A DNA stretch of 64,000 nucleotides from Syntrophorhabdaceae bacterium (GTDB lineage: Bacteria; Desulfobacterota; Syntrophorhabdia; Syntrophorhabdales; Syntrophorhabdaceae), in contig OY762209.1 in NCBI GenBank assembly GCA_963665295.1, positions 4,576,001 to 4,640,000 on the forward strand, written 5' to 3'. The translations under genes were made by a program, and so were the position numbers. The notes below the pieces were generated by a model. It was given only the letters and a program-made list of their open reading frames with translations. It had not been told where the DNA came from and did no database searches. Below are positions 19,272 to 38,146 of this stretch, piece after piece; the first letter of the stretch is position 1, and each line of letters starts with the position of its first letter.

Positions 19272-19928
19272 GTGAGGACAACCTTATTCTTGTCGGATGA
19301 TCACGTTATGGTCAGGGAGGGCCTCCGGTTGTTTCTGGACGGCCAGCCTGGGTTCAACGTCATAGGGCAGGCCTCTGATGGACACGAAACAGTCAGGCAG
19401 GTGCTCAGGCTCAAGCCCGATGTGGTGATTATGGACGTCATGATGCCCGAGCTTAACGGCATCGACGCAACGCGGAAGATTTGCGAGGCAATTCCGTCGG
19501 CAAAGGTGATTATCCTTTCCATGTACGCGAGCAATGAGCACGTTTTTCGCGCCTTCAAGGCGGGGGCGAGCGGGTACGTCCTGAAAGAGATGGCCGGCGA
19601 AGAGCTTGTCCGTGCAATAGAGACGGTTCGCTCGGGAAAACGTTACATTTGTGAAAACATTTCAGGACCCCTCATAGATGACTACATAAAGTACCGGCTG
19701 GCAAACGGAAAACCCGACGATCTCGAACAGTTGAGCGAGAGGGAGCGCGAAGTGCTCCAACTGGTGGCTGAAGGCAATTCGAACAAGCAGATTTCCGGGA
19801 AACTCTCCCTTTCTCCAAGCACGGTGGCAAGCTACCGCTCGCGAATGAAGCAGAAGCTCGGCATAGACGATATATCGGAACTGATCAAATTTGCCATCAG
19901 GCATGGCCTGACATCGGTGAAGGAATAG
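19272..19928 (+). CDS. NarL/FixJ-family response regulator (REC + LuxR HTH)
   Basis: DDH, MDVMMP, GYVLK; LSEREREVLQLVAEG. Confidence 0.93.
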   Translation: MRTTLFLSDDHVMVREGLRLFLDGQPGFNVIGQASDGHETVRQVLRLKPDVVIMDVMMPELNGIDATRKICEAIPSAKVIILSMYASNEHVFRAFKAGASGYVLKEMAGEELVRAIETVRSGKRYICENISGPLIDDYIKYRLANGKPDDLEQLSEREREVLQLVAEGNSNKQISGKLSLSPSTVASYRSRMKQKLGIDDISELIKFAIRHGLTSVKE

Positions 19929-20087: not shown

Positions 20088-21845
20088 TTAGTTGTTTTTG
20101 GTGACCCCGGCGGTCCGACTCGCCCTCACCCTATGCAACTTGCTGTGTTTTCTTCCGTACGCCAGGTAACAGCCCAACCCGATGACGAGCCATACAGAGA
20201 AACCAAGCCACGTAGTTCGTCCCAGTTCCGTCATCAAGTAGAGGCATATTTCCAGACCTGCCAGGGGAATGAGTGAAAGCCTTTTCCTGAAACTGACGTA
20301 CGCCAGAAGTGCCGACACAGCCGCGAACCCTATCACGTGGGGATACCTCCACAGGACAGCCGCTTCACGGGGGCTGAAGATGCAGCAGGCCGAAGCGATG
20401 ACAAGGAGGGCGGGGGTGAAGATATACCGGGAATCGATATAGGGGACCTTGAATTTGCCCCGTGACACACTCTTGTCTTCCTCAAGCACCAGAACGCCTC
20501 CACACACAAGGGCAAAGGCAAACAGCGTCCCTATGCTGCAAAGGTCGGTCACGTCGGCGAGATTCATCAGTTGCGACGGGACGATCACCACCGCGCCGGT
20601 AAAGAGCGTTGAGAACCACGGGGTACCGAACCGCGGGTGAATTGCGTGAAATATGGAGGGGAGCAGGCCGTCCCGCCCCATGGACATCATAACCCTGGAC
20701 TGGCTGATGGCCAGAGCGAGAATGACTGTAGCCATGGTTACCACTGCGCTTGCGGCAACGATCCCCGCGATCATCCGGGCGTTGGCGCCATTCCCTGAGA
20801 AGGCGGCCACCAGAGGGTCGCCCACCCGGAGGTCCTTGTAGTTCACGGCCCCTGTCAGCACAAGGGCGAGAGCAACGTACAGAAAGGTACAGATCAACAG
20901 TGAATAGATGATCCCTCGAGGGAGATCACGCTGGGGGTTTCTGCACTCCTCGGCAGTATTTGATATGGCGTCAAATCCTATATATGCGAAGAAGACCCCG
21001 GAAACCCCTTTCAACACGCCGGGCAACCCATTAGGCGCGAAGGGGCTCCAGTTTTCCTGGCGCACGTAAAACGCACCCGCAATAATGACCAGGAGAACTG
21101 TCGCCGTCTTTATGGTGACCAGGCCATTGGTGATGCGCTTTGATTCCCGTATGCCCGTGTAGCTGACCGCAGTGAGGAGGACGACTACACAGAGCGCGGG
21201 AAGGTCGAGGATGGGCCGGATTCCGAAGACAAGGGGTGCCTCGTTCCATGCATGGTATCCGCTCAGGGCGAAGGACATCCCCGGAATCCGGCCGATAGTC
21301 TCCAAGGTGTGACCCTGGCTGAGAAGCTCTCCTATCTTTTGGACGCCTTTCGATGCCGAAAAATAGTCCATGCTCAGGAACCGGGGAAATTCAATGCCGT
21401 AACCCGAGATGAGGCTCGTAAAATAGTCGCTCCATGAAATGGAAACGGCGCTTGCCGCCACGGTATACTCCATAATAAGGTCCCAGCCGATCACCCACGC
21501 GATCACCTCTCCGAAGGCGGCGTAGGAATAGGTGTAGGCTGAACCCGCAATAGGTATGCGTGAAGCGAAGTCCGCGTAGCAAAGGGCGGAACAACCGCAC
21601 GCCAGGCCCATAAAAATACAGAGAAATACAACTGCGGGTCCTCCCCAGTATGCGGCGTTGCCGATAGTGGAAAAGATCCCCGCCCCCACGATTACGGCAA
21701 TGCCGAAGGCCACAAGGTCGGTCAAACCCAGCTCCCGGCGAAGCCCGTCCGCGTCGGATGAACTTCCGCCCGCATGGCAGTCCGCCCTTCCATCGGTAAG
21801 GATCATGGAGAGGTCTTTCTTGCGGAGCAGATCACGGAATTTCAT
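20088..21845 (-). CDS. APC-family amino acid permease (cationic amino acid transporter-like)
   Basis: IVGAGIF, AGSAYTY, FFAYIGFDA, AEECRNPQRDLP; many TM segments. Confidence 0.92.
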   Translation of the reverse strand: MKFRDLLRKKDLSMILTDGRADCHAGGSSSDADGLRRELGLTDLVAFGIAVIVGAGIFSTIGNAAYWGGPAVVFLCIFMGLACGCSALCYADFASRIPIAGSAYTYSYAAFGEVIAWVIGWDLIMEYTVAASAVSISWSDYFTSLISGYGIEFPRFLSMDYFSASKGVQKIGELLSQGHTLETIGRIPGMSFALSGYHAWNEAPLVFGIRPILDLPALCVVVLLTAVSYTGIRESKRITNGLVTIKTATVLLVIIAGAFYVRQENWSPFAPNGLPGVLKGVSGVFFAYIGFDAISNTAEECRNPQRDLPRGIIYSLLICTFLYVALALVLTGAVNYKDLRVGDPLVAAFSGNGANARMIAGIVAASAVVTMATVILALAISQSRVMMSMGRDGLLPSIFHAIHPRFGTPWFSTLFTGAVVIVPSQLMNLADVTDLCSIGTLFAFALVCGGVLVLEEDKSVSRGKFKVPYIDSRYIFTPALLVIASACCIFSPREAAVLWRYPHVIGFAAVSALLAYVSFRKRLSLIPLAGLEICLYLMTELGRTTWLGFSVWLVIGLGCYLAYGRKHSKLHRVRASRTAGVTKNN

Positions 21846-22452: not shown

Positions 22453-24132
22453 TCAATTCACGTCAGGAATGGAGAGTACCCTTTCGAACCTTGCAGCCAC
22501 GGACTCCTTGTGGGTAATGCAGATGATCGTCTGTTTCTCAAAAATCCTGAACAGGTCGTCGAGGATCTCTTCTTCTACGGCCCCATCCAGGCCCGACGTA
22601 AATTCATCCAACACGAGTACGTGGGGGTCCCTGATAAGGGCGCGGGCAAGGGCGATCCGTTGCTTCTGTCCGCCCGAAAGATTGAATCCCTTCTCCGCGA
22701 AAACGGTTTCGTATTGCTCCGGAAGGCTTTCGATCACGTCGGCGATCCGAACCAGGGCCGCGACCTCCTTGATCCGTTCAAGGGGAACGCCATACCAGCC
22801 CATGGCGATATTTTCCCGGAACGTCTCCCTGAAGAGGTGGGTCTCCTGTCTCACGTAGGCGAAGAAAGTCAAATAAAAAGGCAGGGGATAGGACTCGACG
22901 TCCTTTCCACCGAAAAGAATCTCTCCCGTTTCCGGCTTGAGGAATCTGGTAATCAACTGGGCCAGTGTGCTTTTCCCCGAGCCGCTCGGTCCGACAACTG
23001 CGATCTTTTCACCCGGTTGGATATGAAGATTGACGTTGGTAAGCACGGCCTTGCCGTGGGGATAGGCAAAGGAGACATTACGGAATTCAATATCCGTCCT
23101 TTCCGGCACGCCTTCCAGCGTGAAATCGGCCCGCACCCGTTCTTCGGGAAAATCCATGATCTCCTTCATGCGCTGCAGGGCGGGCAATGCTTGCGCCGAG
23201 TTGATCACTCCCTGGAAAACAAAAAATATCTGGGTGGCAAGTCTGAAGAAAATCACGAAGTACGCCACGAGCATGCCCACGGTAATGTCAGTGCTGCCGC
23301 GACAAATAAGGTATCCCCCCAAAATGAACGGTATGAGCCGAACCGTGACACCCAGGAAATCAAGCCCCGCCGAAGACCAGTCGGACAGAATACGGGTAAT
23401 TATGCTGTGGTCCGCATAACTCTTCGAATCCCTGAAGAACCGGCGTCCGGCCCGTTCCTGCTGCTGGTAAAACCGGATTTCCCTGATTCCGGTCAACATG
23501 TCGAGAAGCGTTTCATTTTGTGCGGCGAGCTTTTCTTTCGAAAGCCTGAAGCTGGTGGCTATAGGTTTGTAAGTCTTCCATGCATATATTTGCAGAAAAG
23601 GGAGCGTGACGAGGAAAGCGAGGCCAAGACGCCAGTTCCAGACAATCAGTCCGGTCACCAGGATCAGGGAAAAGACACAGAAAGCGAGAGACCGCAGCAC
23701 CGTTTGCTGGAAGAAACTGCTGATGAAGTCCAGGTCACTGCTCACCCGGGTCAAAATATCTCCCGAGGGATACTTCGAAAAAAAATCGATCCGCTTCCGC
23801 ATGATGCCGTCCACGAGTGTTTGTCGGAATTGCAGAAACATCCTCTCCGACGCACGTACGGCGAAATTCGAATGGACCGACCAGAATATGAAGGCCACGA
23901 CGTTGGTCAGAAGCAGCAAGGCACTATAGACAAGAAGAAGGTTTGTATCCCTTTCCGGCAGTGCGACGTCGATGATATCTTTAATGATAAAGGGTCCTGC
24001 AAGGGAACCGAAGGTTGAGATGAGGATGAAGAGAGAGGCTGCGGCGAGGTACTTACGCTCCGGCCCGATAGCCGGCCCGAGAAGTTCCCACAAAAGCCCG
24101 AGGACTGATGCTATCTTCTTTTTCTTAACCAA
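22453..24132 (-). CDS. ABC exporter, fused permease/ATP-binding protein
   Basis: TM domain, then GPSGSGKST, LSGGQKQR, LDE. Start placed at TTG 24132 (ATG 24219 is possible); the ORF's further 5' extension lies inside the IS. Confidence 0.9.
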   Translation of the reverse strand: MVKKKKIASVLGLLWELLGPAIGPERKYLAAASLFILISTFGSLAGPFIIKDIIDVALPERDTNLLLVYSALLLLTNVVAFIFWSVHSNFAVRASERMFLQFRQTLVDGIMRKRIDFFSKYPSGDILTRVSSDLDFISSFFQQTVLRSLAFCVFSLILVTGLIVWNWRLGLAFLVTLPFLQIYAWKTYKPIATSFRLSKEKLAAQNETLLDMLTGIREIRFYQQQERAGRRFFRDSKSYADHSIITRILSDWSSAGLDFLGVTVRLIPFILGGYLICRGSTDITVGMLVAYFVIFFRLATQIFFVFQGVINSAQALPALQRMKEIMDFPEERVRADFTLEGVPERTDIEFRNVSFAYPHGKAVLTNVNLHIQPGEKIAVVGPSGSGKSTLAQLITRFLKPETGEILFGGKDVESYPLPFYLTFFAYVRQETHLFRETFRENIAMGWYGVPLERIKEVAALVRIADVIESLPEQYETVFAEKGFNLSGGQKQRIALARALIRDPHVLVLDEFTSGLDGAVEEEILDDLFRIFEKQTIICITHKESVAARFERVLSIPDVN

Positions 24133-24250
24133 GGAAGCACCTTTTTCGATTCCCCTTCTCCCATCATGTGACCCTTTGCTAAAGGCTATCACAGGGAGTC
24201 CGGGATACACAAGCGGCATGAGGATTGCCGGGAATTCGAGACTATTATAC

Positions 24251-24279
24251 TTGACATACCCAAACAAATGTTCTATGCT
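24251..24279 (+). promoter_or_regulatory. Transposase promoter with near-consensus LexA-like box in the spacer
   Basis: TTGACA-17-TATGCT; AAAC-AAAT-GTTC at 24262-24273. Confidence 0.6.
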
Positions 24280-24301
24280 TCTATAAGAAAGGAGATAGAA
24301 C

Positions 24302-25255
24302 ATGAGCCAATCAATAATATCCGCTGCCTACTTCCACAATGAAGATGCCGCTTACGAGTTCGTTGAATCAAGGGTATGGCCCGATGGCCCTGTGTGCCCT
24401 CATTGCGGCGAGCGCGAGCGCATTAGCAAGATGCAGGGCAAGAGCACAAGGATAGGCACTTATAAGTGCTATGCTTGTCGTAATCCTTTCACCGTTAAGA
24501 TCGGGACTATTTTCGAGGGCAGCCATGTTCCTCTGCGCCTATGGCTTCAAGCAATCTATCTAATGTGTGCTTCAAAGAAAGGCATAAGCGCCAACCAGCT
24601 TCACCGGACCTTGGGCGTCACTCTGAAAACTGCGTGGTTTATGGCTCATCGTATTCGTTTGGCAATGGCTCAACCCTCCAAAGAGCCATTCGGGGGGATC
24701 GTTGAAATGGATGAAACATACGTCGGCGGCAAGCTGAAACTTGGTTCTATGGCTGTCAAGCCGGGGGAACGACCTAAAGACAGGCTTTCTCCGGTAGCCA
24801 ACAAGGCTCCTGTGGTATCTCTTGTCCAGCGTAACGGATCGGTCCGGTCTTATCATGTTACCAAGATTACTGCATATAATCTCAGGCCGATAGTCGATGA
24901 GGTTGTAGCGAAGGACGCGCACCTTATGACCGACACTTCAACCATACTCAAAAGCGCCGGGGCGGGCCGTAAACTATCCCAAGTGAACCACGAGCGGGAA
25001 GAGTATGTAAGATACGAGGACGGCGAGTGTATCACCACCAACACGGTTGAAGGCTATTTCAGTATCTTGAAGAGGGGCATTAACGGCGTCTATCATCATT
25101 GCAGTAAACATCATCTTCATAGATACCTTGCGGAGTTTGATTTCAGGTATAATAATAGGGTAGCCAAGGGCGTGAACGATACAGAGCGAGCAGAGAATGC
25201 CCTTAAAGGCATTGTAGGTAAAAGGCTCACCTACAAGAGGCCTGTTAAAGGATAA
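24302..25255 (+). CDS. IS1595-family DDE transposase
   Basis: Zn ribbon WPDGPVCPHC...CYAC, HTH region, DETYVGG, LMTD, NTVEGYFSILKRG, YLAEFDFRYN. Confidence 0.95.
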   Translation: MSQSIISAAYFHNEDAAYEFVESRVWPDGPVCPHCGERERISKMQGKSTRIGTYKCYACRNPFTVKIGTIFEGSHVPLRLWLQAIYLMCASKKGISANQLHRTLGVTLKTAWFMAHRIRLAMAQPSKEPFGGIVEMDETYVGGKLKLGSMAVKPGERPKDRLSPVANKAPVVSLVQRNGSVRSYHVTKITAYNLRPIVDEVVAKDAHLMTDTSTILKSAGAGRKLSQVNHEREEYVRYEDGECITTNTVEGYFSILKRGINGVYHHCSKHHLHRYLAEFDFRYNNRVAKGVNDTERAENALKGIVGKRLTYKRPVKG

Positions 25256-25263
25256 GGAGGACT

Positions 25264-25428
25264 ATGAGGAAAGACGACAAAGGGAACATAAAAAACCACC
25301 ACGATCTGGACGACGAAGAGGAGTCTATAAGATTCGTCGAAAAGGCTAAAGAGACGCAGGCAGAAGGCGCCGATGAACTATTCATGGGGGCCTGTGATTT
25401 AATATTGTCTAAGAAGGCTAAGGACTAG
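25264..25428 (+). CDS. Small passenger protein (54 aa) directly after the transposase
   Basis: AAGGAGG RBS overlapping the transposase stop; MRKDDKG...EESIRFVEKAKETQAEGADELF; below the ORF-track size cutoff. Confidence 0.65.
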   Translation: MRKDDKGNIKNHHDLDDEEESIRFVEKAKETQAEGADELFMGACDLILSKKAKD

Positions 25429-26279
25429 TCTCGTCTTGGTTCTCGCAGTTTTTTGCTAAGGCGCTCTATAAATTTCACTGTGCCGTCTAATATATCTTTC
25501 GCTTCAGTTTCATTATATACAATCCTTGAGTGAGACACATTGTTTCTGTATGCATCCTTGAAATGATCGAACTGGGCCGCTGCGTCCGATACAAAAGTTA
25601 CTTTAGCGGACCACTCTTTGTAGGCCCTATTGCTCATTTGTTTGCGCTTTGGGGCGTCTTTCAGGTAATCTATCGCGTGTTTTATTTTAGAAATTAGTTT
25701 GCCTTGCTCCGCATATTCTATTCCTTTGTATACTTTTGTGATGTTTAGGTGTCTCGCAAAGACCCTTAGGCCGATCTCCACCGCTCTCATTGCGTGGAAC
25801 ACAGAGGCGGTATATTCCCCAAAGACGAAGCATTTGCCGGAATGGTTTAATTCGCTAGAGGCCCCGGGGAACCTTTCTTTTAGTGAGCCGACCACGCCCC
25901 AACTATAGTATTTAGAACGTTCCTGGGGGACATGAAAGAATAAATACCCCCCTATGGCGGAATAAACTACACGTTCCAACATCATGAGTTCGTTCCAAGT
26001 TTTAGGCATGTTCACGGCTAAATATGCCAGCAGATCGGATGCCACTTTGGCGCCTAGGTCGTCACAACATTTAGTCAGGTTCGTTATAAAAAGACGCACA
26101 AATTCTATGTTTTCTTTATCATCTAATGGATGATCCCCAAATGCTTCCAAAACTGCCATCCTAGCCTTAACTTCACCAAACAGTTGGCCAATCTCTATGT
26201 ATTCTTTTGCCGATACTTTAAGCATATCCAATATGCTCCACAGTTTATATGGATTTTCTACCCAAGGTAATAGTTTCAT
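25425..26279 (-). CDS. IS passenger protein with HEPN-like C-terminal domain
   Basis: ASVFHAMRAVEIGLR helix and Rx4H motif RNNVSH; AAGGAGG RBS. Confidence 0.7.
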   Translation of the reverse strand: MKLLPWVENPYKLWSILDMLKVSAKEYIEIGQLFGEVKARMAVLEAFGDHPLDDKENIEFVRLFITNLTKCCDDLGAKVASDLLAYLAVNMPKTWNELMMLERVVYSAIGGYLFFHVPQERSKYYSWGVVGSLKERFPGASSELNHSGKCFVFGEYTASVFHAMRAVEIGLRVFARHLNITKVYKGIEYAEQGKLISKIKHAIDYLKDAPKRKQMSNRAYKEWSAKVTFVSDAAAQFDHFKDAYRNNVSHSRIVYNETEAKDILDGTVKFIERLSKKLREPRRD

Positions 26280-26368
26280 CCTACACCCCTCCTTAAAAAC
26301 CGTCAATATATTGGTTGTATTTTTCCTCCGTAATGGTACAATCGGCTAAAACTTGCGGAGGCTTACCC

Positions 26369-26599
26369 ATGGAAGAGAACATCTATTCTGGAATTACAGA
26401 GGTCATGCAAATAACGCCCGATGACGTGATAAGATGCGCCACCTGTAATTATTTGCCCAACGATTATGCCGACACAATCAATCACTATCTTTCCAACCAC
26501 GGATATAAACTGCTTCACATTGGATCACACTCGTCTTACGATGGCACTCATTATATCAGTGACATCTTTGCTCTGCTCGGCAAGGGGCCTGTTGGGTAG
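26369..26599 (+). CDS. Small IS passenger protein, possible Zn-binding (CxxC...HxxxxH)
   Basis: GGAGG RBS; CATC...INHYLSNHGY; upstream TTGTAT-16-TACAAT. Confidence 0.6.
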   Translation: MEENIYSGITEVMQITPDDVIRCATCNYLPNDYADTINHYLSNHGYKLLHIGSHSSYDGTHYISDIFALLGKGPVG

Positions 26600-26752
26600 G
26601 GGCATTAGACCCGGAAAACGTTCAAAAAGCAGGTTAATCATTTCTTGGCACTTCTCCTGAAAGTCGGGTTCATCGTCGCTGTGATTTTTTATGTAAAACA
26701 GGGCGTCGATAGCCTGTTTGGGATGTGCCCAATTAGTCATTGTCATTTTCAT
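26525..26752 (-). CDS. Possible small IS passenger protein (75 aa)
   Basis: AAGGGGG RBS directly after the right-end inward promoter; overlaps the opposite-strand ORF by 75 nt. Confidence 0.35.
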   Translation of the reverse strand: MKMTMTNWAHPKQAIDALFYIKNHSDDEPDFQEKCQEMINLLFERFPGLMPLPNRPLAEQSKDVTDIMSAIVRRV

Positions 26753-26782
26753 TCTATGCCCCCTTATATAGTTCTCCACCGA

Positions 26783-26811
26783 ATAGTAGAACAAGTGTTC
26801 TACTTTGTCAA
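26783..26811 (-). promoter_or_regulatory. Inward-facing promoter at the IS right end with a perfect GAAC-N4-GTTC box
   Basis: Minus strand TTGACA-17-TACTAT; GAAC-AAGT-GTTC at 26789-26800 lies within the palindrome GTAGAAC-AAGT-GTTCTAC. Confidence 0.65.
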
Positions 26812-26908
26812 GTGGGTACGTGAAAGATAATAGTCTCGGGAATTCTCTTGACTCCCTGATAAAAACCTTGTAGAGAGTAGTCAGTAATTCCCCACAGGAG
26901 GTGACGAG

Positions 26909-27889
26909 GTGATAATACTCACTCCAGAGGAAGTGAGAAACAGGTTTGGACGTTTCTTTTACGAAGGGGTAATCACCCTCGTCGATCCCACAAACAACAA
27001 GATCGAAATCGTGGAAACCTTCGGGTTTTTTCCGGGCAGCGGCGAATGGACTGCAATCAACCGATGCAGGGCCGGAGGTATTGTCGAGTATTGCGAGCTT
27101 TACGGCAAGACCACAGTTCTGAGGGCGCGGATCGGGGAGTCCGAAGTGCGGTTCGGGCCGGTTGATCAGGAACAGGGTGGACAAGGCCTGGAAGGCGCTC
27201 TGATAGAAGGCGACACGGTCAGGACGAAGTGGGCGGGGATTGCCGGCGCAGGTCTCAGCGTAGCAGCATCCCTCGCTCAAGCGCCCGGCGTGATATCGGC
27301 GTGTTACCCCACGGAGGAGGATTTGCAGGCCGGGGGACGACACACCAACAGGGTGGAAATAATCACCCCGAGATACGAAAAGATCACCATCGGCATTGAC
27401 GACACCGACGATCCCGAGGGAGGAGCGACATGGTCTCTGGCGTTGAACGCCAGGCATGAAGCCGCCGGACTGGAAGGGGTTGAGCCACTTTTTCTCAGGC
27501 TCGCTCAACTCTATCCCAAGAGCCCTTACAAGACAACCAACTGCACGTCCACCATCATGACGTTTGCGGTGAAACCCGGGATAGAGGATGCGCTCATAAA
27601 GACCGTTGCCGACATCGTCAGATCTCAAACACGGTCAGAGGACACGGGACTCGCGGTCCTCCGGGGCATAGGCGTTCCGGAAAGCCTCTTGGCCTTTGGC
27701 CGTGAAACGAAAAAACGGATGGTCTCTCTGGAAGAGACGGCCATCTTTGAAACCTGGGACAACCTGCGGATAATTGAGATTGGAAAAGGAACAAGGGGCC
27801 GCATCGGGGCTCTCGCGGCTTTGGGGTTGTCCGAGCGGAAAGATGCCGCAATGCTTTATAGTGAGCCCGCATCGCACCTTGTCAGATGA
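26909..27889 (+). CDS. Methanogenesis marker 11-like / DUF1743 protein (TiaS-like domain at C-terminus)
   Basis: EWTAINRCRAGG, WAGIAGAG, IGIDDTDDPEGGATW, QLYPKSPYKTTNC, GRIGALAA; AGGAGG RBS. Confidence 0.8.
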   Translation: MIILTPEEVRNRFGRFFYEGVITLVDPTNNKIEIVETFGFFPGSGEWTAINRCRAGGIVEYCELYGKTTVLRARIGESEVRFGPVDQEQGGQGLEGALIEGDTVRTKWAGIAGAGLSVAASLAQAPGVISACYPTEEDLQAGGRHTNRVEIITPRYEKITIGIDDTDDPEGGATWSLALNARHEAAGLEGVEPLFLRLAQLYPKSPYKTTNCTSTIMTFAVKPGIEDALIKTVADIVRSQTRSEDTGLAVLRGIGVPESLLAFGRETKKRMVSLEETAIFETWDNLRIIEIGKGTRGRIGALAALGLSERKDAAMLYSEPASHLVR

Positions 27890-27902
27890 TAGCGAGACGA
27901 GC

Positions 27903-28730
27903 ATGATCATAGAGACCATCATGGACAGGGCCCGGACCACCAGGGCAAGGATTGCGGTGGGGGCGGCGTCGGGCCACGAGGAAAAGGTTGTGGAAAGCGC
28001 GGCGAAGGCTGTCGCGCTGGGTTGTGCGGAGGTTGTGATAGTGAGCTCCCGGCCCCTGGATACCCGCTTTGAAAATATCGTGGGCAACGAACCGGAGCAC
28101 AAGCTGATCGAACTCCTCAAGGCAGGAAAGGTGAGCGGGGTCGTGAGGGGCACCCTCGACATAAACCCCATCCTCTCGGCCCTCAGGGAACAATTCGGCG
28201 TCAGGAAGATCTTGAGGCTTGCCCTCCTCAAAACCCCCTCGGGGAACCCGTTCTTCTTCGCCCCGGCCGGTATAGACGACGGCTGGACCGTAAGGGAAAA
28301 GGTCAGGTTCGGTGAGTACGGGGCCGAACTGATAAGAAGGTTGGGCTTCCGTGAAGATATCGGCGTACTCGGCGGAGGCAGATCGGATGACCGCGGACGA
28401 TCCAGAATAACGGACAAGAGCATAGAAGATGCGGAAAAAGTGACGGAAGCATTGAAGAGGAAAGGATACCGGGCCGAATGCCGTTATATACTGATCGAGG
28501 AGGCAGTGAAAAACAACAACTTCATAATCGCTCCGGACGGCATCTCGGGAAACCTCATCTATCGATCCTTATGTCTCGTAGGGGGCGGCAGTGGAATGGG
28601 CGGACCTGTCATAGGGACTGATTTCGTCTATGTCGATACCTCAAGGGCAAGCAGCAGATACGAAAACGCCATATGCCTCGCCTCCGCCCTCGCAAGTTTT
28701 CTACCCCGGCCCCGGAAAGGTGTGCGCTGA
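27903..28730 (+). CDS. mtxX: Methanogenesis marker 4 / MtxX-like protein (phosphotransacetylase-like fold)
   Basis: VVRGTL, RLALL, FFAPAGIDDG, LGGGRSDDRGR, ILIEEA, IIAPDGISGNLIYRSL, YVDTSR. Confidence 0.8.
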   Translation: MIIETIMDRARTTRARIAVGAASGHEEKVVESAAKAVALGCAEVVIVSSRPLDTRFENIVGNEPEHKLIELLKAGKVSGVVRGTLDINPILSALREQFGVRKILRLALLKTPSGNPFFFAPAGIDDGWTVREKVRFGEYGAELIRRLGFREDIGVLGGGRSDDRGRSRITDKSIEDAEKVTEALKRKGYRAECRYILIEEAVKNNNFIIAPDGISGNLIYRSLCLVGGGSGMGGPVIGTDFVYVDTSRASSRYENAICLASALASFLPRPRKGVR

Positions 28731-28762
28731 TCAGAATACCCGGACAACCGACAACTGTTTTG

Positions 28763-30486
28763 CCCTGATCCACCGCCAAAAATAATTGAAAACCTCGTTG
28801 GCGCTGAATAATCAGCATGATAGAATAAAGGTAGCCAACCAAATCTATCACCAACGAGGTGAATCAATTATGCCACAAGGTCTCCTCGCTTACAAGTATG
28901 AAGAAGACAGAAAGGGTTCGGCCATGACCGCCCTCGCCGGACTCCCCCTCTACCTGGATCTGGCCTTTACCCTTGGCCTACCTGAGAGCATCGGGCATCA
29001 TTTGTCCCTTCGACCGCATCAGGGGTGGACTGACTCCCGGATGATCATGTCTCTTATGCTGCTTGCTCTCGCAGGCGGGGAATGTGTCGACGACCTTAAA
29101 GTGCTGGAAGCCGATAAAGGGTTTTGCCGACTCCTTGAGCGCATGGAACCGACGCTCTCTTTGCGTTTTCGGAGAGAGAAGACGCGCGTTGTTCCCTCTC
29201 CCTCATCCGTATTCCGCTATCTCGCCGCTTTCCACGATACCTCGCTCCTTGACGGCTTTACGCGCATCAACCGCGATCTCGCTGCGTCCTTCCAACGGAG
29301 AAGATCCTCATCTGTTGCGACACTCGACATGGATGCCACCCTCGTGGAGACCGCAAAAAAGAATGCCTTCTTCTCATATGAGGGGTATAAGGCCTACCAG
29401 CCTCTTCAGGTATTCTGGGCGGAACAGGAACTCCTTGTCCATACCGAGTTTCGAAACGGCAATACTCCCGCCAACCATGACCTTCTCAGGGTTTTTAAGG
29501 AAACCCTCGACGGCCTGCCTCAAGGAGTAAAGAAGGTCCGCCTCCGCTCCGACGGTGCGGGCTATGTCCATGATCTTCTCGCATACTGCGACAAAGGAGC
29601 GCATCCGCGATTCGGAAGGGTAGAGTTCGCGATCAGTTGTCCCGTTACCGAGGCGTTCAAGCGCGAGGTCTCTCTTGTACCCGATGAGGAATGGAAGAAT
29701 CTTGACAGTCGCCGCCAGTGGGCGACGGTGGTGTTCGTGCCCAATGCCCTCGCCCATTCAAAAAAGGGACAAACCTACCGCTACTTCGTCATTCGCGAGC
29801 CGCTTCGTCAACCTGTGCTGCCCGGTATGGATCTTCCCTTTGCGACCCTCGATCACAAGGGCGTGCAGTACAAGCTCCGGGGGCTCGTCTCGAACATGGA
29901 GTGGGCAGGGGAGAGACTCATTACCTTCTCCTATGAACGTTGCGGTAAGAGCGAGGAGGCCCACGCCGTCCTAAAAGAGGACCTCGCAGGCGGAAAGCTC
30001 CCGTCGGGGAACTTCGGAGAGAATGCGGCATGGTGGTGGATCATGGTCCTTGCTTTCAATCTTCATGCAGCCATGAAACAACTCGCCCTCGGAGGCTCCT
30101 GGGTGCAAAAGCGGATAAAAGCAATCCGCTTCGGTCTTATCAACCTGCCCGGCCGGATCGTCGACCATGCCCGGCAACTGGTGATCAGGATTGCAAGGTA
30201 CCATCCCTCCTTCGCTCTTCTTGCGGAAGCACGGCAGAAAATCATGAGACTGGCTCTGTCGGGATAGCATGCGTGGGAAAACCCTGAGATGAAGGAGAAG
30301 CATAAGGCGCATTGCAAAAGGAGAGGTGCGCGCCAAAATACCCTTAGGAGGAACATAAACGGTGTCTCCTTAAACGAACGGCAGCGGACGAACCTTTTTT
30401 GATGCCCAAAAAAGGGTGAGTTGATCAAAATTCTGATTCAGGGATCATAAAGCGGGGGATAGGGAAGAGTAGGCGGTGGATTTGGG
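28763..30486 (+). mobile_element. Complete IS1380-family element (1724 bp)
   Basis: IRL CCCTGATCCACCGCC versus IRR reverse complement CCCAAATCCACCGCC (13/15 match); 5-bp TSD TTTTG at 28758-28762 and 30487-30491. Confidence 0.9.
28870..30267 (+). CDS. IS1380-family transposase
   Basis: LDMDAT, FRNGN, LRSDGAG, YERCGKSEEAHAVLK, PSGNFGENAAWW. Confidence 0.92.
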   Translation: MPQGLLAYKYEEDRKGSAMTALAGLPLYLDLAFTLGLPESIGHHLSLRPHQGWTDSRMIMSLMLLALAGGECVDDLKVLEADKGFCRLLERMEPTLSLRFRREKTRVVPSPSSVFRYLAAFHDTSLLDGFTRINRDLAASFQRRRSSSVATLDMDATLVETAKKNAFFSYEGYKAYQPLQVFWAEQELLVHTEFRNGNTPANHDLLRVFKETLDGLPQGVKKVRLRSDGAGYVHDLLAYCDKGAHPRFGRVEFAISCPVTEAFKREVSLVPDEEWKNLDSRRQWATVVFVPNALAHSKKGQTYRYFVIREPLRQPVLPGMDLPFATLDHKGVQYKLRGLVSNMEWAGERLITFSYERCGKSEEAHAVLKEDLAGGKLPSGNFGENAAWWWIMVLAFNLHAAMKQLALGGSWVQKRIKAIRFGLINLPGRIVDHARQLVIRIARYHPSFALLAEARQKIMRLALSG

Positions 30487-30536
30487 TTTTGCGGTAACCC
30501 TTTCAATGGGGCTTTTGATATGATAAAATGCTTCAC

Positions 30537-33552: not shown

Positions 33553-35688
33553 ATGAAGAAAACATGCCTGACTTCCGCAGTCTTTTGTATGGTTCTGGTG
33601 TTCACTCTGTTTTCGGGTCTCGCCCTTGGCGCAAAGACCCCCCAGCAGGCATCGTGCAAAGGATGCCATTCCGACTTCAAGGAAATCCTGCCCCAGGGGC
33701 ATAAACCCGTAAAGGGAGATGGTATCAAAGCATGCCTGCCCTGCCATGGGGTTGCCGGAACGACGGATACCAAGGCGGATCCGTTTTTCAACCGCCTCCA
33801 CAAGGCCCATGCGTCCGAGGCCGACTGCTCCCTGTGCCACACTTACAAACCGGGCAAATCGTTTACCGTGACAGGCGCAAAGAAGTCTGAGGGGGCCCTT
33901 GCCCGCAAAGACATGGAGTTGATCAGGAAGAACACCCTCTCGTCGTCTTCCTCCGGATACCTGGATTCGGTTCACGCCCGCAAGGACCTGGCATGCCGGG
34001 CTTGCCATGGCAAGACGCTCATCCCGGATGACAACGAAACCCGCGAAAACGGGCGGTGCATCACATGCCACGGCTCCCTGGAAAAGCTGGCTTCCAAATC
34101 CGCCGACCATATCAACCCCCACAAATCACACCTGGGGGAAATCAGTTGTACCGTTTGTCACCATGTCCATGGAGCATCAAAACCGTATTGCGCCAACTGT
34201 CACACCTTCAAGATGAAAATACCCGGCTCCGGCAAGGAAGGGGCGACGAAGCCCGCGGACAAAGGGGCGTCCGTAATCCCCGAGGTTGTTGAACCCAGGG
34301 GCCTGAAGTTCGAGAAGACCGACGTGGTGGTGATAGGATCGGGAGCAGCGGGCCTGACCGCCGCTATTACTGTCCGCGACGCGGGATTGAAGGTGATCGT
34401 CCTTGAAAAACAGCCCATTACCGGGGGAAACAGCATGCTCGCCGCAGGCGGAATGAACGCGGCAGATACACCGGTCCAAAAAGCAAAAGGGATCAAAGAC
34501 TCCCCTGACCTTATGTACAGGGACACGATGACAGGGGGCAAGAACCTCAATGACCCCGCCCTCGTCACAATCCTCGCAAGAAATTCCGCGGGCTCCGTGG
34601 AGTGGCTTACAAAACTGGGGGCCGACCTCAGCGACGTGGGACGCCTGGGAGGGGCAAGCGTGGACCGGGCCCACAGACCTAAGGGAGGGACCGCAGTAGG
34701 GGCGAACATCGTCAACACTTTGAGAAAAGCCGCCTCCCACCGGGCCATCGACGTCCGCGTCAACAGCAAGGTGGTAAAGGTCCTTGAAGATGAGAGCGGC
34801 CGGGTAACCGGGGTACTCGTGGAGGGAACCCACAAAGGACTCTACGGAATAAAGGCAGGGGCGGTAATAAACGCCGCCGGGGGCTTTTCGGCAAACCCCG
34901 CCAAGGTGGCGCTCTACAGGCCGGAGTATGCGGGTATGACCACGTCGAATCAGCCCGGCGCAACAGGTGACGGGATGGACCTCGGTGCGCAGGCCCGCGG
35001 AGAACTGCGGGACATGAAACAGATCCAGATTCACCCCTCGGTGGCAGTGGGGAGCAGAATACTGATTACCGAGGCAGTGAGGGGTAACGGGGCGATCATG
35101 GTAAACCGTGAAGGAAAACGCTTCGTCAATGAAATCACGACACGGGACGCCGCGTCGGCCGCGGTCCTCGCCCAGCCCGGTAAGACTGCCTTCCTTATCT
35201 TCGATGATGGGATACGTAAAAGCCTGAAACAGATCGAGGGTTATTTCCACCTCGAACTTGTAAAAGAGGGTGAGACTCTTGAGGAACTTTCCCGGAAGAT
35301 CAAAGTGCCGCCCGATGTGCTGAAAAATACCATCGAGCAGTACAACAGATTCTATGACTCGAAAGCCGATCCGGACTTCAAGCGGTCCGATATGCCCCGT
35401 CCGATCAAGGGTCCCCGGTATTACGCCATTGAAATAGCCCCGGGCATCCATTACACCATGGGCGGACTGAAGATCAATACGGACACCCAGGTCATCGCCA
35501 AGGACGGCAAACCGATCCCGGGGTTCTTCGCCGCAGGTGAAGTGACAGGCGGCGTTCACGGCGCAAACCGCCTTGGAGGAAACTCGATCTCGGAGACAAT
35601 TACCTTCGGCAGAATTGCGGGAGCCAATGCGGCAAAATCCGTGAAGGAGATGGTGAAAAAGAAACAGCCGACCCGCGGAAAGCCCTGA
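33553..35688 (+). CDS. Periplasmic flavocytochrome c (7 hemes + fumarate-reductase-type FAD domain)
   Basis: Signal peptide; 7 CxxCH; GSGAAG, QIHPS, TEAVRG, TTRD, HYTMGG, NRLGGNS. Confidence 0.92.
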   Translation: MKKTCLTSAVFCMVLVFTLFSGLALGAKTPQQASCKGCHSDFKEILPQGHKPVKGDGIKACLPCHGVAGTTDTKADPFFNRLHKAHASEADCSLCHTYKPGKSFTVTGAKKSEGALARKDMELIRKNTLSSSSSGYLDSVHARKDLACRACHGKTLIPDDNETRENGRCITCHGSLEKLASKSADHINPHKSHLGEISCTVCHHVHGASKPYCANCHTFKMKIPGSGKEGATKPADKGASVIPEVVEPRGLKFEKTDVVVIGSGAAGLTAAITVRDAGLKVIVLEKQPITGGNSMLAAGGMNAADTPVQKAKGIKDSPDLMYRDTMTGGKNLNDPALVTILARNSAGSVEWLTKLGADLSDVGRLGGASVDRAHRPKGGTAVGANIVNTLRKAASHRAIDVRVNSKVVKVLEDESGRVTGVLVEGTHKGLYGIKAGAVINAAGGFSANPAKVALYRPEYAGMTTSNQPGATGDGMDLGAQARGELRDMKQIQIHPSVAVGSRILITEAVRGNGAIMVNREGKRFVNEITTRDAASAAVLAQPGKTAFLIFDDGIRKSLKQIEGYFHLELVKEGETLEELSRKIKVPPDVLKNTIEQYNRFYDSKADPDFKRSDMPRPIKGPRYYAIEIAPGIHYTMGGLKINTDTQVIAKDGKPIPGFFAAGEVTGGVHGANRLGGNSISETITFGRIAGANAAKSVKEMVKKKQPTRGKP

Positions 35689-35730: not shown

Positions 35731-36279
35731 TTACCCTGTCAGCAAAACGCGCCCCATTGCGGCCCCAGTTTTACCGGTATCCATGACTTGCCTGTACTGA
35801 TTGACTGCTTGCTGCAGCATGTTTTTTGATTGAGAAAGCAGACTTTGGGTCGCAGACTGGGTCGCCGACAACGGGCTTGACGTGCCTCCCGTTCCGGTCG
35901 CCCCCTGGAGCAATTCTTCCTTGCTGATTGCTCCGTCGCTATTTGCGTCCATCTGGCTGAAGACCTGGTCCGAACCCTGAAGGAGACTCATCAGGGACGC
36001 CGTCGAACCTGACTGGAAATTCGCCAGGGCATCGGTTATCTGCCCCTCCATTGTCGTTTTCGCCTTCTTCAATTCCTCTTTGCTGATTGTGCCGTCTCCA
36101 TTGGTGTCCATCTTGCCGAAGGCCTGGTCCAAAGAGAGGACCCGTGTCTTCGAAGCGGACTGATACCCTGTAGCGGCGATCTGATCGGATCCGCCGCTCA
36201 CAGTCGATGAGTTCGCCATCATCTGGCGAACCTGAGTCAAGTATGCGGAAGTTCCCGCACCGCTAATTCCACCAACCAT
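35731..36279 (-). CDS. EF-hand domain protein
   Basis: DTNGDGTISKEE and DANSDGAISKEE; AAGGAGG RBS. Confidence 0.8.
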   Translation of the reverse strand: MVGGISGAGTSAYLTQVRQMMANSSTVSGGSDQIAATGYQSASKTRVLSLDQAFGKMDTNGDGTISKEELKKAKTTMEGQITDALANFQSGSTASLMSLLQGSDQVFSQMDANSDGAISKEELLQGATGTGGTSSPLSATQSATQSLLSQSKNMLQQAVNQYRQVMDTGKTGAAMGRVLLTG

Positions 36280-36399
36280 ACCCACCTCCTTTCTCGACCC
36301 CGGCGCCGTACCTTTCCTGAGGTATATTTCCAAGGCTCAGGCCCGTCGCTTCCCTGCCCTCGCGGCGCCCCGGTCGAACAATTCCATGTATCAAAGGGT

Positions 36400-36415: not shown

Positions 36416-36570
36416 CCGGTCTAAGCAACGGACCGGTAAAAATAACTCCGTTATTTCAATGGGATGAGATTATTGGACCAAACCCGCCCTGAGGCCGGCG
36501 TGGGAAAATATTTCCCTTTAGGGAATATTATGCCGACCTTCCATAACCCGGCGGGCACCGGCCAAAGCAT

Positions 36571-36765
36571 CTATTCGACGAACTTCAGCCCGCAGGCTTT
36601 GCATTCTTTCGCATCGCCGTTATCTTCAATTATGACCCTGCAGGCCGGGCACATTGTCAGGAGGCCCGCTCCGCATACAGGACAAGTCTTCCCGCCGGTT
36701 TCCCCGGCGGTCGTTTTACATTCGGGGCATGTCCGGATCTTCACAGCTTTGTCTTTCGTCGCCAT
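36571..36765 (-). CDS. Small double zinc-ribbon protein
   Basis: CPEC, CPVC, CPAC, CKAC; GGGAGG RBS. Confidence 0.7.
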   Translation of the reverse strand: MATKDKAVKIRTCPECKTTAGETGGKTCPVCGAGLLTMCPACRVIIEDNGDAKECKACGLKFVE

Positions 36766-36940
36766 TTTAACCCTCCCTGGAACGACTTTTCTTCCGCGCC
36801 TGTCCGGCGCTTCACTTTCAATGTTTGACGGTTGTGATAATTTGTCAAGTGACTGTCTCATCCGTGGGGTCCGGTCCCGTAGTCGCATTATTCAATTGAT
36901 AAGTCACGGCATAACAGGTAATAAATATAAAGATAGGGTG

Positions 36941-38146
36941 ATGAGAACAACACTGAAGACGCCGACAGGAACCGACCGGAGGGCCGGCGATGGGGGAGAC
37001 GACTGGTACTACCGCGTGCAGGACGGCGGTCACGACCTCGTGAGGGGACCCTTTTCCAGGGCAGAGTTGCGAACTCTTTGCTCGCGGGGACATGTCCCTC
37101 CACGGGCAATGGTCCGTAACGGCTTGAGGGGCGACTGGCAGCTTGCTGGCACGTATTTTCCTTCCTTCGTCAAAACAAGGATGCGTCCGTCACTGGGTCA
37201 CATTGTGCTCCCTGTATTGTTTGTAGTCCTTCTCGTCGCTCTCTATGCGCGCGACAGCCGCAATGGGCCCTACCCGCGGGTCCTCCCCTTCGGAAAGACG
37301 GCAACACCGGACAAGTTTGTCTTCCTCTCCTTGAAACCTATGGAGCCGTTCCGCGCACCTAATCCCCTTCCCACCGAGAAGCCCCCGGAGCCTCTTCTCA
37401 CAAAACAGAGGGTAATCATGTGGACCAACGAAGCAAGGGTTCAGGAGATGCTGCCTCCCCTCGCGGAAAACAAGCAGTTGGACATGGTCGCGGAAGAACG
37501 GGTCAATGATATGTTCAGAAGACAGTATTTCGCACATGTCGCTCCCTCCGGTGAGGATGTATCCGAAGGAGTCCGAAAAATAGGCTACCAGTACAGGCTC
37601 TTGTCCGAAAACATAGCCAAAGGGGCATTCCGCGACGAACAGAGAGTAGTTCAGGGGTGGCTCCACAGCGAAGGGCATCGGAAGAACATGCTTTCCCAGG
37701 ATGTCGAAGAGATCGGGGTAGGCGTAGGAAAAGGGAGCCTCAACGGTGAGATCGTCTGGATCGCCGTACAGGTATTCGGCAAGTCGCTTCCTCCCGCTGC
37801 CGATAAGGCCGCCACCGAGCGGACAGCGAAATCGTCACAGGCGGTATGCGTGAAACCGAATGAGACTCTCCGTTCCGGCATAGACGCCCTTCGAGCCGAA
37901 GTATCCCTTATCGGCAAGGCAGCGGCGGGCTTGAAGACAGAGATCGAAACCGATAGGAACGGTCTTTTGTCCAAATCCCGGACCAAGCAGGAGTACGACG
38001 AGAATCTGTTGCAGCAATACGCGGCAAGAATCCGGAAGTACAATCTCCTGGTAGGGGAAATGAAGAGGAAGGACCAGTTGGCCAGGGAGATGGTCGCCGA
38101 ATACAATTCGGAAGTGGACGGCTATAACGGCTGTATCAGGGATTGA
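36941..38146 (+). CDS. GYF_2-like domain + TM + CAP (SCP) domain + coiled-coil protein
   Basis: WYY...GPFS..EL; TM; TNEAR, YFAH, ENIA, WLHSEGHRKNM, EIGVG. Start placed at ATG 36941. Confidence 0.82.
   Translation: MRTTLKTPTGTDRRAGDGGDDWYYRVQDGGHDLVRGPFSRAELRTLCSRGHVPPRAMVRNGLRGDWQLAGTYFPSFVKTRMRPSLGHIVLPVLFVVLLVALYARDSRNGPYPRVLPFGKTATPDKFVFLSLKPMEPFRAPNPLPTEKPPEPLLTKQRVIMWTNEARVQEMLPPLAENKQLDMVAEERVNDMFRRQYFAHVAPSGEDVSEGVRKIGYQYRLLSENIAKGAFRDEQRVVQGWLHSEGHRKNMLSQDVEEIGVGVGKGSLNGEIVWIAVQVFGKSLPPAADKAATERTAKSSQAVCVKPNETLRSGIDALRAEVSLIGKAAAGLKTEIETDRNGLLSKSRTKQEYDENLLQQYAARIRKYNLLVGEMKRKDQLAREMVAEYNSEVDGYNGCIRD

Follow-up and report, generated by a model that had tools for sequence, protein, structure and literature searches.

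Why would a bacterium carry, side by side, two genes of families known as methanogenesis markers? The question is raised by a 64,000-nt stretch of DNA from a Syntrophorhabdaceae bacterium (GenBank assembly GCA_963665295.1, contig OY762209.1, positions 4,576,001–4,640,000 of the forward strand), the whole of which is referred to as the window. Gene 1, coding for an Mmp11-like protein of 326 amino acids from a GTG start (26909–27889, + strand), is followed there by gene 2, coding for a 275-residue Mmp4/MtxX from an ATG start (27903–28730, + strand). Mmp4/MtxX is regarded as a near-exclusive marker of methane-metabolising archaea. We find that the pair is an intact two-gene operon, archaeal in origin. 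The identity of both genes and their transfer from a methanogen lineage are in our judgement highly probable, and the explanation that we favour as a whole, a transferred archaeal operon with a two-step small-molecule role, is held with moderate confidence.

A first-pass annotation of the window had described two adjacent same-strand genes of host-like composition in a bacterial setting, and each of these points was confirmed. The two genes are co-oriented with a gap of 13 nt (27890–27902), and a ribosome-binding site, AGGAGG, can be read from the sequence at 26896–26901 (+ strand), 7 nt before the GTG of gene 1. Compared with 2037 long host open reading frames (ORFs), the GC content, the GC content at third codon positions (GC3) and the codon-adaptation index of both genes lay between the 23rd and the 67th percentile. 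The same window holds PutA, a LuxR-type response regulator, and ACIII-like molybdopterin and NrfD genes. A profile search of the host genome returned one copy of each gene of the pair.

Identity of the two genes

Gene 2 scored 210.6 bits (E 1.5e-62) with the TIGR03270 model of Mmp4, over the cut-off of 190, and covered profile positions 4–204 of 204 (211.3 bits in the genome search). It also matched, by sequence similarity, the crystal chain of MthMtxX (9nzy_A, Methanothermobacter MTH_231; E 7.7e-33). The DTSR motif (D245, S247 and R248) and the arginine residues R82, R160 and R166 were invariant in 48 aligned Mmp4 sequences including gene 2, the mapping of gene 2 residues on to MthMtxX numbering being our own reading of the 9nzy alignment. 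Judged from these matches, gene 2 is a true Mmp4/MtxX, as had been proposed at first pass. A phosphate acetyl- or butyryltransferase was rejected as its identity: the NCBIfam PTB models (TIGR02706 type) gave 17–18 bits against cut-offs of 282–410. The match to Pfam PTA_PTB (PF01515) was weak (26.5 bits) and covered residues 1–50 only.

The crystal structure of MtxX was published in 2026 and, according to the accessible portion of that paper, the function of the protein is left open (PMC12978539). In the same portion, the Ser and Arg of DTSR superpose on the catalytic Ser/Arg of phosphotransacetylases, three cleft arginine residues are specific to MtxX, the ligand is inferred to be acidic and hydrophobic in character, and the lipid phosphate acyltransferase PlsX is structurally related (PMC12978539); MMP11 and bacterial mtxX genes are not mentioned in the portion of text available to us. 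Gene 2 thus resembles other Mmp4/MtxX proteins in keeping the Ser/Arg of DTSR and the three arginine residues of the cleft (R82, R160 and R166), and differs from them in that its host is a bacterium without an McrA match. Its surroundings differ as well, since mtxX neighbours mtxA/mtxH, mmp2 or uppS, whereas gene 2 neighbours the Mmp11-like gene and bacterial transporters.

The identity of gene 1 is less straightforward. The first-pass annotation had called it Mmp11-like, and the hidden Markov model comparison upheld this assignment, with an N-terminal domain followed by TCKD and FLD, but not an assignment to canonical Mmp11. Gene 1 aligned with nearly the whole of TIGR03280 (profile positions 2–289 of 292) at 206.1 bits (205.9 in the genome search), missing the cut-off of 255.8. 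A separate canonical gene of 322–338 bits was found elsewhere in each of three Methanocellales genomes, in two of which an intact paralogue of 193–196 bits adjoins Mmp4; in the third, this paralogue is split in two pieces. In Methanoculleus palmolei, a 190.6-bit gene is directly followed by canonical Mmp11 (338 bits) and then by a radical-SAM gene. The host genome contains the low-scoring Mmp11 type only, together with one weak TCKD-like ORF, and the TIGR03280 profile search of that genome detected no canonical Mmp11. An orthologue of canonical Mmp11 was therefore rejected, and on the profile scores gene 1 is a paralogue, of a type found in addition to the canonical gene in the likely donor lineage. 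It shares with canonical Mmp11 the three-part architecture and the GIDDTD motif, and differs in belonging to a paralogous subfamily, members of which occur in Methanocellales genomes that also have the canonical gene and, in Methanomicrobiales, form a tandem pair with it.

The TiaS-like GIDDTD domain described at first pass was recovered. Residues 1–155 form a family-specific N-terminal domain and residues 156–322 a TiaS-type TCKD kinase domain with a ferredoxin-like domain (FLD). GIDDTD occupies residues 162–167, of which G162, D164, D165 and T166 are invariant in the family alignment, and gene 1 keeps every family-invariant residue. The match to Pfam TiaS_TCKD was 40.4 bits. In an AlphaFold2 (AF2) model with a mean predicted local distance difference test score (pLDDT) of 92.5, residues 156–322 superposed on TiaS 3amt with Z 20.7 and a root-mean-square deviation of 2.0 Å over 156 aligned residues at 25% identity. 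The DDTD motif and Thr174 are conserved, and Thr174 aligns with a Cys-Thr-Thr segment of the TiaS homologue 3u02.

TiaS itself splits ATP with its TCKD domain and phosphorylates its target, which raises the possibility that the Mmp11-like protein modifies a macromolecule (tRNA or protein) as TiaS does, with Mmp4 as an accessory. Both the closeness of the kinase and ferredoxin-like domains to those of TiaS, the tRNA(Ile2) agmatidine synthetase (3amt, 4rvz), and the conserved Thr aligned with the Cys-Thr-Thr of 3u02 speak for such a role. However, the TiaS model NF040849 was matched at 41.7 bits, with a cut-off of 600, over profile positions 2–152 of 422 only, and gene 1 stops after 326 residues. 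The tRNA-holding part of TiaS lies in the region that gene 1 is without; in its place stands the 155-residue N-terminal domain, which has no solved relative. As the pair is in addition linked to three kinds of small-molecule transporters, described below, we regard modification of a macromolecule as quite improbable. The name 'tRNA(Ile2) 2-agmatinylcytidine synthetase' that NCBI gives to relatives of gene 1 is probably an over-annotation, since the C-terminal two-thirds of TiaS is unmatched and the N-terminal domain is a different one.

The N-terminal domain was modelled with confidence on its own (pLDDT 90.2). A Foldseek search with it returned no match at E ≤ 0.001, and the best VIA hit (Z = 6.8 over 52 residues) was inside the background range. 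Its profile found only 100 representatives among 1.84 billion sequences; those near full length were of Mmp11-type length and the others were mostly fragments. The domain is almost confined to proteins of Mmp11 type. ESM Atlas matches of residues 1–155 (scores of 0.75–0.78), which serve as leads only, were all to archaeal clusters of the TCKD family. Between a strand and a helix, the domain has an invariant glycine-rich loop, W-A-G-x-x-G (W108, G110 and G113), which in the model may be a phosphate-binding site. A search of metagenome contigs with gene 1 gave eight weak matches at 30–47% identity, six of them over the TCKD domain and two over short N-terminal pieces.

The weak TCKD-like ORF of the host genome codes for 242 amino acids (L003:1243–1971, − strand, near C1:5417–6145) and has a weakly TiaS-TCKD-like N-terminus, scoring 19.6 bits with Pfam and 41.6 bits with TIGR03280. 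Similar weak matches were present in three relatives (G020, G029 and G034), and ORFs of this type may represent a separate bacterial branch of the TCKD family.

Descent from a methanogen lineage

The first-pass annotation had suggested an interdomain transfer from a methanogen, and similarity, gene order, trees and distribution agree with it. When 5.8 billion proteins were searched with both genes, the best matches (60–69% identity) came from metagenome-assembled genomes (MAGs) labelled Syntrophus sp., Syntrophaceae and Syntrophorhabdaceae, and these records suggest that both genes of the bacterial relatives share contigs. Methanocella species ranked next, at 50–58% identity for gene 1 and 52–56% for gene 2, followed by other methanogens. 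The nearest non-bacterial relatives of both proteins were all methanogens.

The gene order is shared with archaea. Among 80 loci fetched with the Mmp11-like profile, some of them short, Mmp4 lay directly downstream of the Mmp11-like gene in two bacterial and four Methanocellales loci, with gaps of 12–21 nt in four of these six. In one Methanosarcinales MAG, Mmp4 was upstream of and abutted the Mmp11-like gene; it was absent from the other 73 loci. Exactly one Mmp4 was present per genome in all ten archaeal genomes searched, and the ordinary Mmp4 is therefore the ancestor of gene 2 in bacteria.

Maximum likelihood trees (LG+C20) gave the same topology for both proteins. In the Mmp11-like tree (44 rows, drawn from protein-search matches and fetched loci, and rooted on five distant rows, of which the three named are Methanobrevibacter, Geoglobus and Methermicoccaceae), ten bacterial rows grouped together (support 100/100) as sister to eight Methanocellales rows (98/96), and the joint clade (100/99) lay inside Methanomicrobia. 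In the Mmp4 tree (35 rows, after exclusion of L106, whose match was short, and L114, which had an internal stop), 12 bacterial rows (100/99) were sister to eight Methanocellales rows (98/96) in a joint clade of 100/99. The bacterial stem carries one unlabelled long-branch row in each tree (P0069 and P0147). Nesting of the bacterial sequences within methanogen clades, put forward at first pass as a test, thus holds for methanogen diversity as a whole, but not for the sampled Methanocellales. Because the bacteria are sister to the Methanocellales and not nested in them, the donor would be a Methanocellales-related or a stem lineage.

The distribution of Mmp4 among bacteria is patchy. Counted in samples that include some incomplete genomes, Mmp4 was detected in none of 40 relatives from the same genus, family and order, in five of 96 genomes of the class (the host genome and four of the 20 species of one other genus) and in none of 400 further genomes sampled from elsewhere in the phylum. 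These counts do not fit an ordinary, widespread bacterial family, the objection that the first-pass annotation had raised against its own proposal.

These observations point to the following history. A Methanocellales-related lineage carried the Mmp11-like paralogue directly upstream of its single Mmp4/MtxX; the two-gene unit moved once, long ago, into syntrophic Thermodesulfobacteriota (MAGs of Syntrophus and Syntrophaceae type by record label); and it survives there in a few bacterial lineages under purifying selection.

Mmp11-like genes 39–41% identical to gene 1 also occur under other bacterial record labels, namely Faecalibacterium sp. CAG:74, Acutalibacteraceae, Ruminococcus sp. CAG:579, Dialister hominis and Bacteroides salyersiae (loci L069, L072, L077, L080 and L082). 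The UppS and B12-radical-SAM neighbours of Methanomassiliicoccales loci likewise appear in loci labelled Eubacteriales, Veillonellales and Bacteroidales. Such records are probably archaeal contigs under bacterial bin labels.

Flanking insertion sequences and the assembly

Two insertion sequences (ISs) flank the pair. The left one is an IS1595-family element (24238–26837; an inverted repeat with 26-nt ends and a DDE_Tnp_IS1595 match) bounded by an 8 bp duplication, GGGAATTC, at 24230–24237 and 26838–26845. It is the only full copy in the host genome, and its GC content and codon use are at the 0–4th percentile. It sits in the spacer between gene 1 and a divergent ABC transporter gene, 71 nt upstream of the gene 1 start; without it, this spacer would measure approximately 176 nt, compared with 167 nt in the related bacterial locus L010. 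The right element (28763–30486; an inverted repeat with a Pfam DDE_Tnp_1_4 transposase) begins 32 nt past the Mmp4 stop and is flanked by TTTTG at 28758–28762 and 30487–30491. A second copy elsewhere in the host genome is 100% identical. Composite transposon delivery was rejected, because the IS1595-type and DDE_Tnp_1_4 elements are of different families and each has its own duplication; the ISs thus did not deliver the pair, and other bacterial loci carry it without them. Both ISs arrived after the pair, in agreement with the later insertion proposed at first pass.

Could the pair be an artefact of assembly or binning, or else belong to an ordinary widespread bacterial family? The ISs at its flanks and the bacteria-labelled records with archaeal-type Mmp11-like genes would be in keeping with an artefact, and a chimaera at the IS boundaries had been named at first pass as a risk. 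However, the host genome is a single contig of 5,508,164 bp, and two short-read contigs from two studies (51,235 nt and 34,574 nt) each span window positions 23800–28876 with zero differences, running from the ABC gene through both junctions of the left IS and both genes to 114 nt inside the right IS. No chimaera is present at the upstream junctions or within the pair, which these contigs bridge from the bacterial flank. The interior of the right IS is fragmented in the short-read contigs, as expected for a repeat, and the sole contig across its right junction starts 30 nt inside the IS. Given also that none of the 400 other phylum genomes yielded Mmp4 and that its nearest non-bacterial relatives are methanogens without exception, the chance of an artefact or an ordinary family is close to negligible.

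Some further features of the ISs were observed. The left IS carries two passenger ORFs on the − strand (25425–26306, 293 amino acids; 26525–26749, 74 amino acids) with no Pfam or NCBIfam match; the larger has a GC content of 0.43, in the lowest percentile of the genome. A promoter-like site in its right end (26805–26834, + strand; TTGTCA, 18 nt, AATAGT), identified by consensus match only, faces gene 1 and may either promote or impair expression of the pair. The other copy of the right IS (C1:1351090–1354086) is interrupted by an insertion of approximately 1.27 kb, and 3 nt of the IS are duplicated where it is broken; six copies of a related IS, 67–79% identical over segments, are scattered through the host genome.

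Age and selection

The bacterial copies are 57–89% identical to each other in amino acid sequence, and the synonymous substitutions per site (dS) are mostly saturated. For the least saturated pairs, the non-synonymous substitutions per site (dN) were 0.063 with a dS of 0.88 for Mmp4 (dN/dS 0.07), and 0.064 with a dS of 1.28 for the Mmp11-like gene (dN/dS 0.05); all of the computable dN/dS values among bacterial copies were 0.05–0.15. The host-like codon use, the saturated dS and the diverged bacterial copies indicate that the transfer is ancient, and the substitution ratios that the pair is kept under purifying selection in bacteria.

A neutral relic of the transfer, functionless in this bacterium, is the obvious contrary view. 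It could account for the IS that interrupts the upstream region and for the module genes broken in two of the other genomes (G058 and G046). But both reading frames are intact, all of the invariant residues are kept, dN/dS is 0.05–0.15, and bacterial copies only 57–70% identical still have the same gene order and the ABC neighbour. We consider a relic very improbable. The decay in those two genomes was seen as follows: in G058 (contigs C16 and C20), where the Mmp11-like gene is present twice (88% identity), the ABC gene is split and stop codons interrupt the APC genes, and in G046 (C192) the Mmp4 match is in two pieces, so that the module varies or decays between genomes.

The first-pass annotation had also proposed that the activity of the pair is independent of methanogenesis, and the gene content of the host agrees. 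No McrA was detected in the host genome by a search that did detect it in control methanogens, and the radical-SAM partner was present in two of two archaeal genomes searched and in none of three bacterial ones. The unit has thus long been kept under selection in bacteria without matches to McrA, canonical Mmp11 or the radical-SAM partner, and because it is selected without those methanogen genes, its activity would be independent of methane formation.

Transporters beside the bacterial pair

The bacterial pair has a clade-specific ABC-B half-transporter for a neighbour and, in several genomes, APC and MFS permeases as well. The ABC-B gene of the window (22453–24132, − strand; Pfam ABC_membrane and ABC_tran, with the start taken from a 559-residue database entry) is divergent from the pair. 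Its product shares 70% identity with that of the gene divergent from the pair in locus L010; in L011, where two ABC genes stand in tandem next to the pair, identity to one of them is 56%. Within the class, orthologues (57–67% identity) occur only in the same five of 96 genomes that hold Mmp4, near the Mmp genes, and other ABC matches do not exceed 32% identity except for a 42% paralogue in the host genome. A large protein collection yielded a tight set of about 30 members, labelled mostly Syntrophus or Syntrophorhabdus, with single Chloroflexota, Lentisphaerae and Ignavibacteria entries, beyond which identity drops to 33%; no Methanocella member was found in this set. Several of these entries have a DNA record of the same size as that of the Mmp matches.

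An APC-family amino-acid permease (20088–21845, − strand; Pfam AA_permease_2) lies further along. Its homologues (52–75% identity) were found in five of the 96 class genomes, four of which hold Mmp4, and they are near the module in G056, G046 and G058, broken in the last. An MFS gene directly follows Mmp4 in three genomes. In G056 (C2), the Mmp11-like gene stands with the ABC gene, and Mmp4 with the MFS gene, at separate spots; the region between them is rich in transporters and GNAT acetyltransferases and includes an amidohydrolase. The neighbours of the pair in Methanocellales (a histidine kinase, DUF362, HMG-CoA reductase and others) included no ABC homologue and offered no functional clue.

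A two-step small-molecule proposal and its alternatives

What could such a pair do? In line with the first-pass annotation, we tentatively propose, with the odds somewhat against it, a two-step mechanism acting on a small molecule, in which ATP activation is followed by group transfer by Mmp4. The N-terminal domain of the Mmp11-like protein, with its W-A-G-x-x-G loop, would bind the substrate, and the TiaS-type kinase domain (DDTD and Thr174) would use ATP to phosphorylate a substrate oxygen. Mmp4, with its phosphotransacetylase (PTA)-type Ser-Arg site and arginine cleft, would then take the phosphorylated or acyl-phosphate intermediate and pass its activated group on to an acceptor. A small molecule of acidic and hydrophobic character is the probable ligand, and the linked transporters probably import or release it in the bacterium. 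The arrangement recalls acetate kinase/phosphotransacetylase, in that an ATP-using kinase would stand beside a transferase of the PTA fold; unlike in that system, the Mmp11-like kinase fold is unrelated to acetate kinase and MtxX, according to the accessible part of the structure paper, is without the PTA catalytic-base Asp (PMC12978539). Prediction of an Mmp11-like/Mmp4 complex scored 0.00 in two runs, which says nothing either way.

Several points weigh against the favoured explanation or parts of it. The missing catalytic-base Asp makes classical phosphotransacylase chemistry uncertain for Mmp4. In G056, the Mmp11-like gene and Mmp4 are 23 kb apart, and tight coupling is thus not obligatory. 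The transporter neighbourhood is circumstantial. The left IS lies in the promoter region of gene 1, 71 nt upstream, and the window copy may be poorly expressed. With regard to origin, the Mmp4 tree is rooted on Methanomassiliicoccales only, and the donor is not pinned down, the bacteria being sister to the sampled Methanocellales.

The archaeal gene neighbourhoods offer two more specific alternatives. In Methanomicrobiales (L015 and about 30 other loci), the order is Ftr, the Mmp11-like gene, canonical Mmp11, a radical-SAM gene with weak LipS2 and variant-rSAM matches, a gene for an IOR-alpha-like thiamine pyrophosphate (TPP) protein and a gene of the isopropylmalate/homocitrate-synthase family. 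A tandem paralogue of the same family was next downstream in 37 of the 62 archaeal loci with a callable gene. The pair could accordingly be part of a thiol-cofactor pathway of the coenzyme B/coenzyme M type, in which the Mmp11-like protein, Mmp11, the radical-SAM protein and Mmp4 of methanogens would jointly carry out late steps; the bacterium would keep two of these steps and the transporters, and would salvage a metabolite or precursor from a methanogen partner, or supply it. That order with its tandem paralogue, the acidic and hydrophobic ligand inferred for MtxX in the accessible part of its structure paper (PMC12978539), and the fact that bacteria are without the radical-SAM gene and canonical Mmp11 yet have added transporters would all suit such a pathway. 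Against it, the synthase neighbour falls below every equivalog cut-off, so that AksA is no more than a candidate identity for it, and the neighbourhood varies among archaeal orders. These bacteria are not known to use coenzyme B or M. Our literature search found no paper that ties Mmp4 or Mmp11 genes to the coenzyme B pathway, and the accessible part of PMC11619418 does not mention these genes. We therefore rate a thiol-cofactor role as unlikely. The fuller scenario, that bacteria captured part of a methanogen small-molecule pathway, possibly the late steps of thiol-cofactor (coenzyme B) synthesis, and wired it to the ABC-B transporter and permeases for exchange with a partner, we rate as decidedly unlikely.

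In loci of Methanomassiliicoccales type, by contrast, UppS is directly downstream of the Mmp11-like gene (one annotated case, with nine loci sharing that neighbour), and mtxX adjoins uppS in Methanobacteria and Methanococci according to the accessible part of the MtxX paper (PMC12978539). From these neighbours, the substrate of the pair could be a lipid carrier of the polyprenyl-phosphate type or an intermediate linked to lipid, with ABC-B as the flippase. The structural relation of PlsX to MtxX given in the same source (PMC12978539) and the scores of the ABC-B protein with the MsbA and PglK models would fit; these scores are below cut-off, however, and many other exporter models match equally weakly. 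Moreover, polyprenyl carriers are universal whereas Mmp genes are nearly limited to methanogens and a few bacteria, and no uppS is near the pair in the annotated bacterial loci. A lipid-carrier role is on this evidence improbable. From neighbours alone, we rank neither the thiol cofactor nor the lipid carrier above the other, and the two-step small-molecule proposal, which names no particular compound, is the one that we retain.

Implications

Both families are known, and names such as 'methanogenesis marker protein Mmp4/MtxX [Syntrophaceae bacterium]' have already been assigned automatically in public records; because of these names, the sequences count as public though undiscussed. Our literature search, made partly by title and the start of the abstract, found no paper on the function of Mmp11 or on these markers in syntrophic bacteria. 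The distribution of the markers in bacteria is not settled by the accessible text of PMC9635834, on which its supplements may bear. What is new is that the two genes moved as a unit, lost the company of their archaeal partners and came to stand beside bacterial transporters.

With the Mmp11-like paralogue and Mmp4 recognized as a transferable unit, the search for the substrate narrows to a compound from which a methanogen and its syntrophic neighbour would both benefit, and the conserved transporters become candidate pointers to it. The bacterial, methane-free setting opens biochemical access to Mmp4 and the Mmp11 family. For metagenome surveys, neither family is safe as a methanogen marker without a check of the host. 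Were metabolite exchange to prove the right reading, the pair would be a molecular trace of syntrophic exchange and a methane-free handle on the roles of Mmp4 and Mmp11.

Other genes of the window

The LuxR-type response regulator (19272–19928, + strand; Pfam Response_reg and GerE) is more weakly linked to the pair, with homologues near the module in L104 and L115. Downstream of the pair, the window also contains genes for a dynamin-like GTPase and a flavocytochrome, in addition to the ACIII-like molybdopterin and NrfD genes mentioned above. One downstream gene (33553–35688, + strand) codes for a multihaem cytochrome c3 fused to a FAD-binding fumarate-reductase-like domain, and it is followed by genes for an EF-hand protein (35731–36333, − strand) and a CAP-domain protein (36464–38146, + strand).

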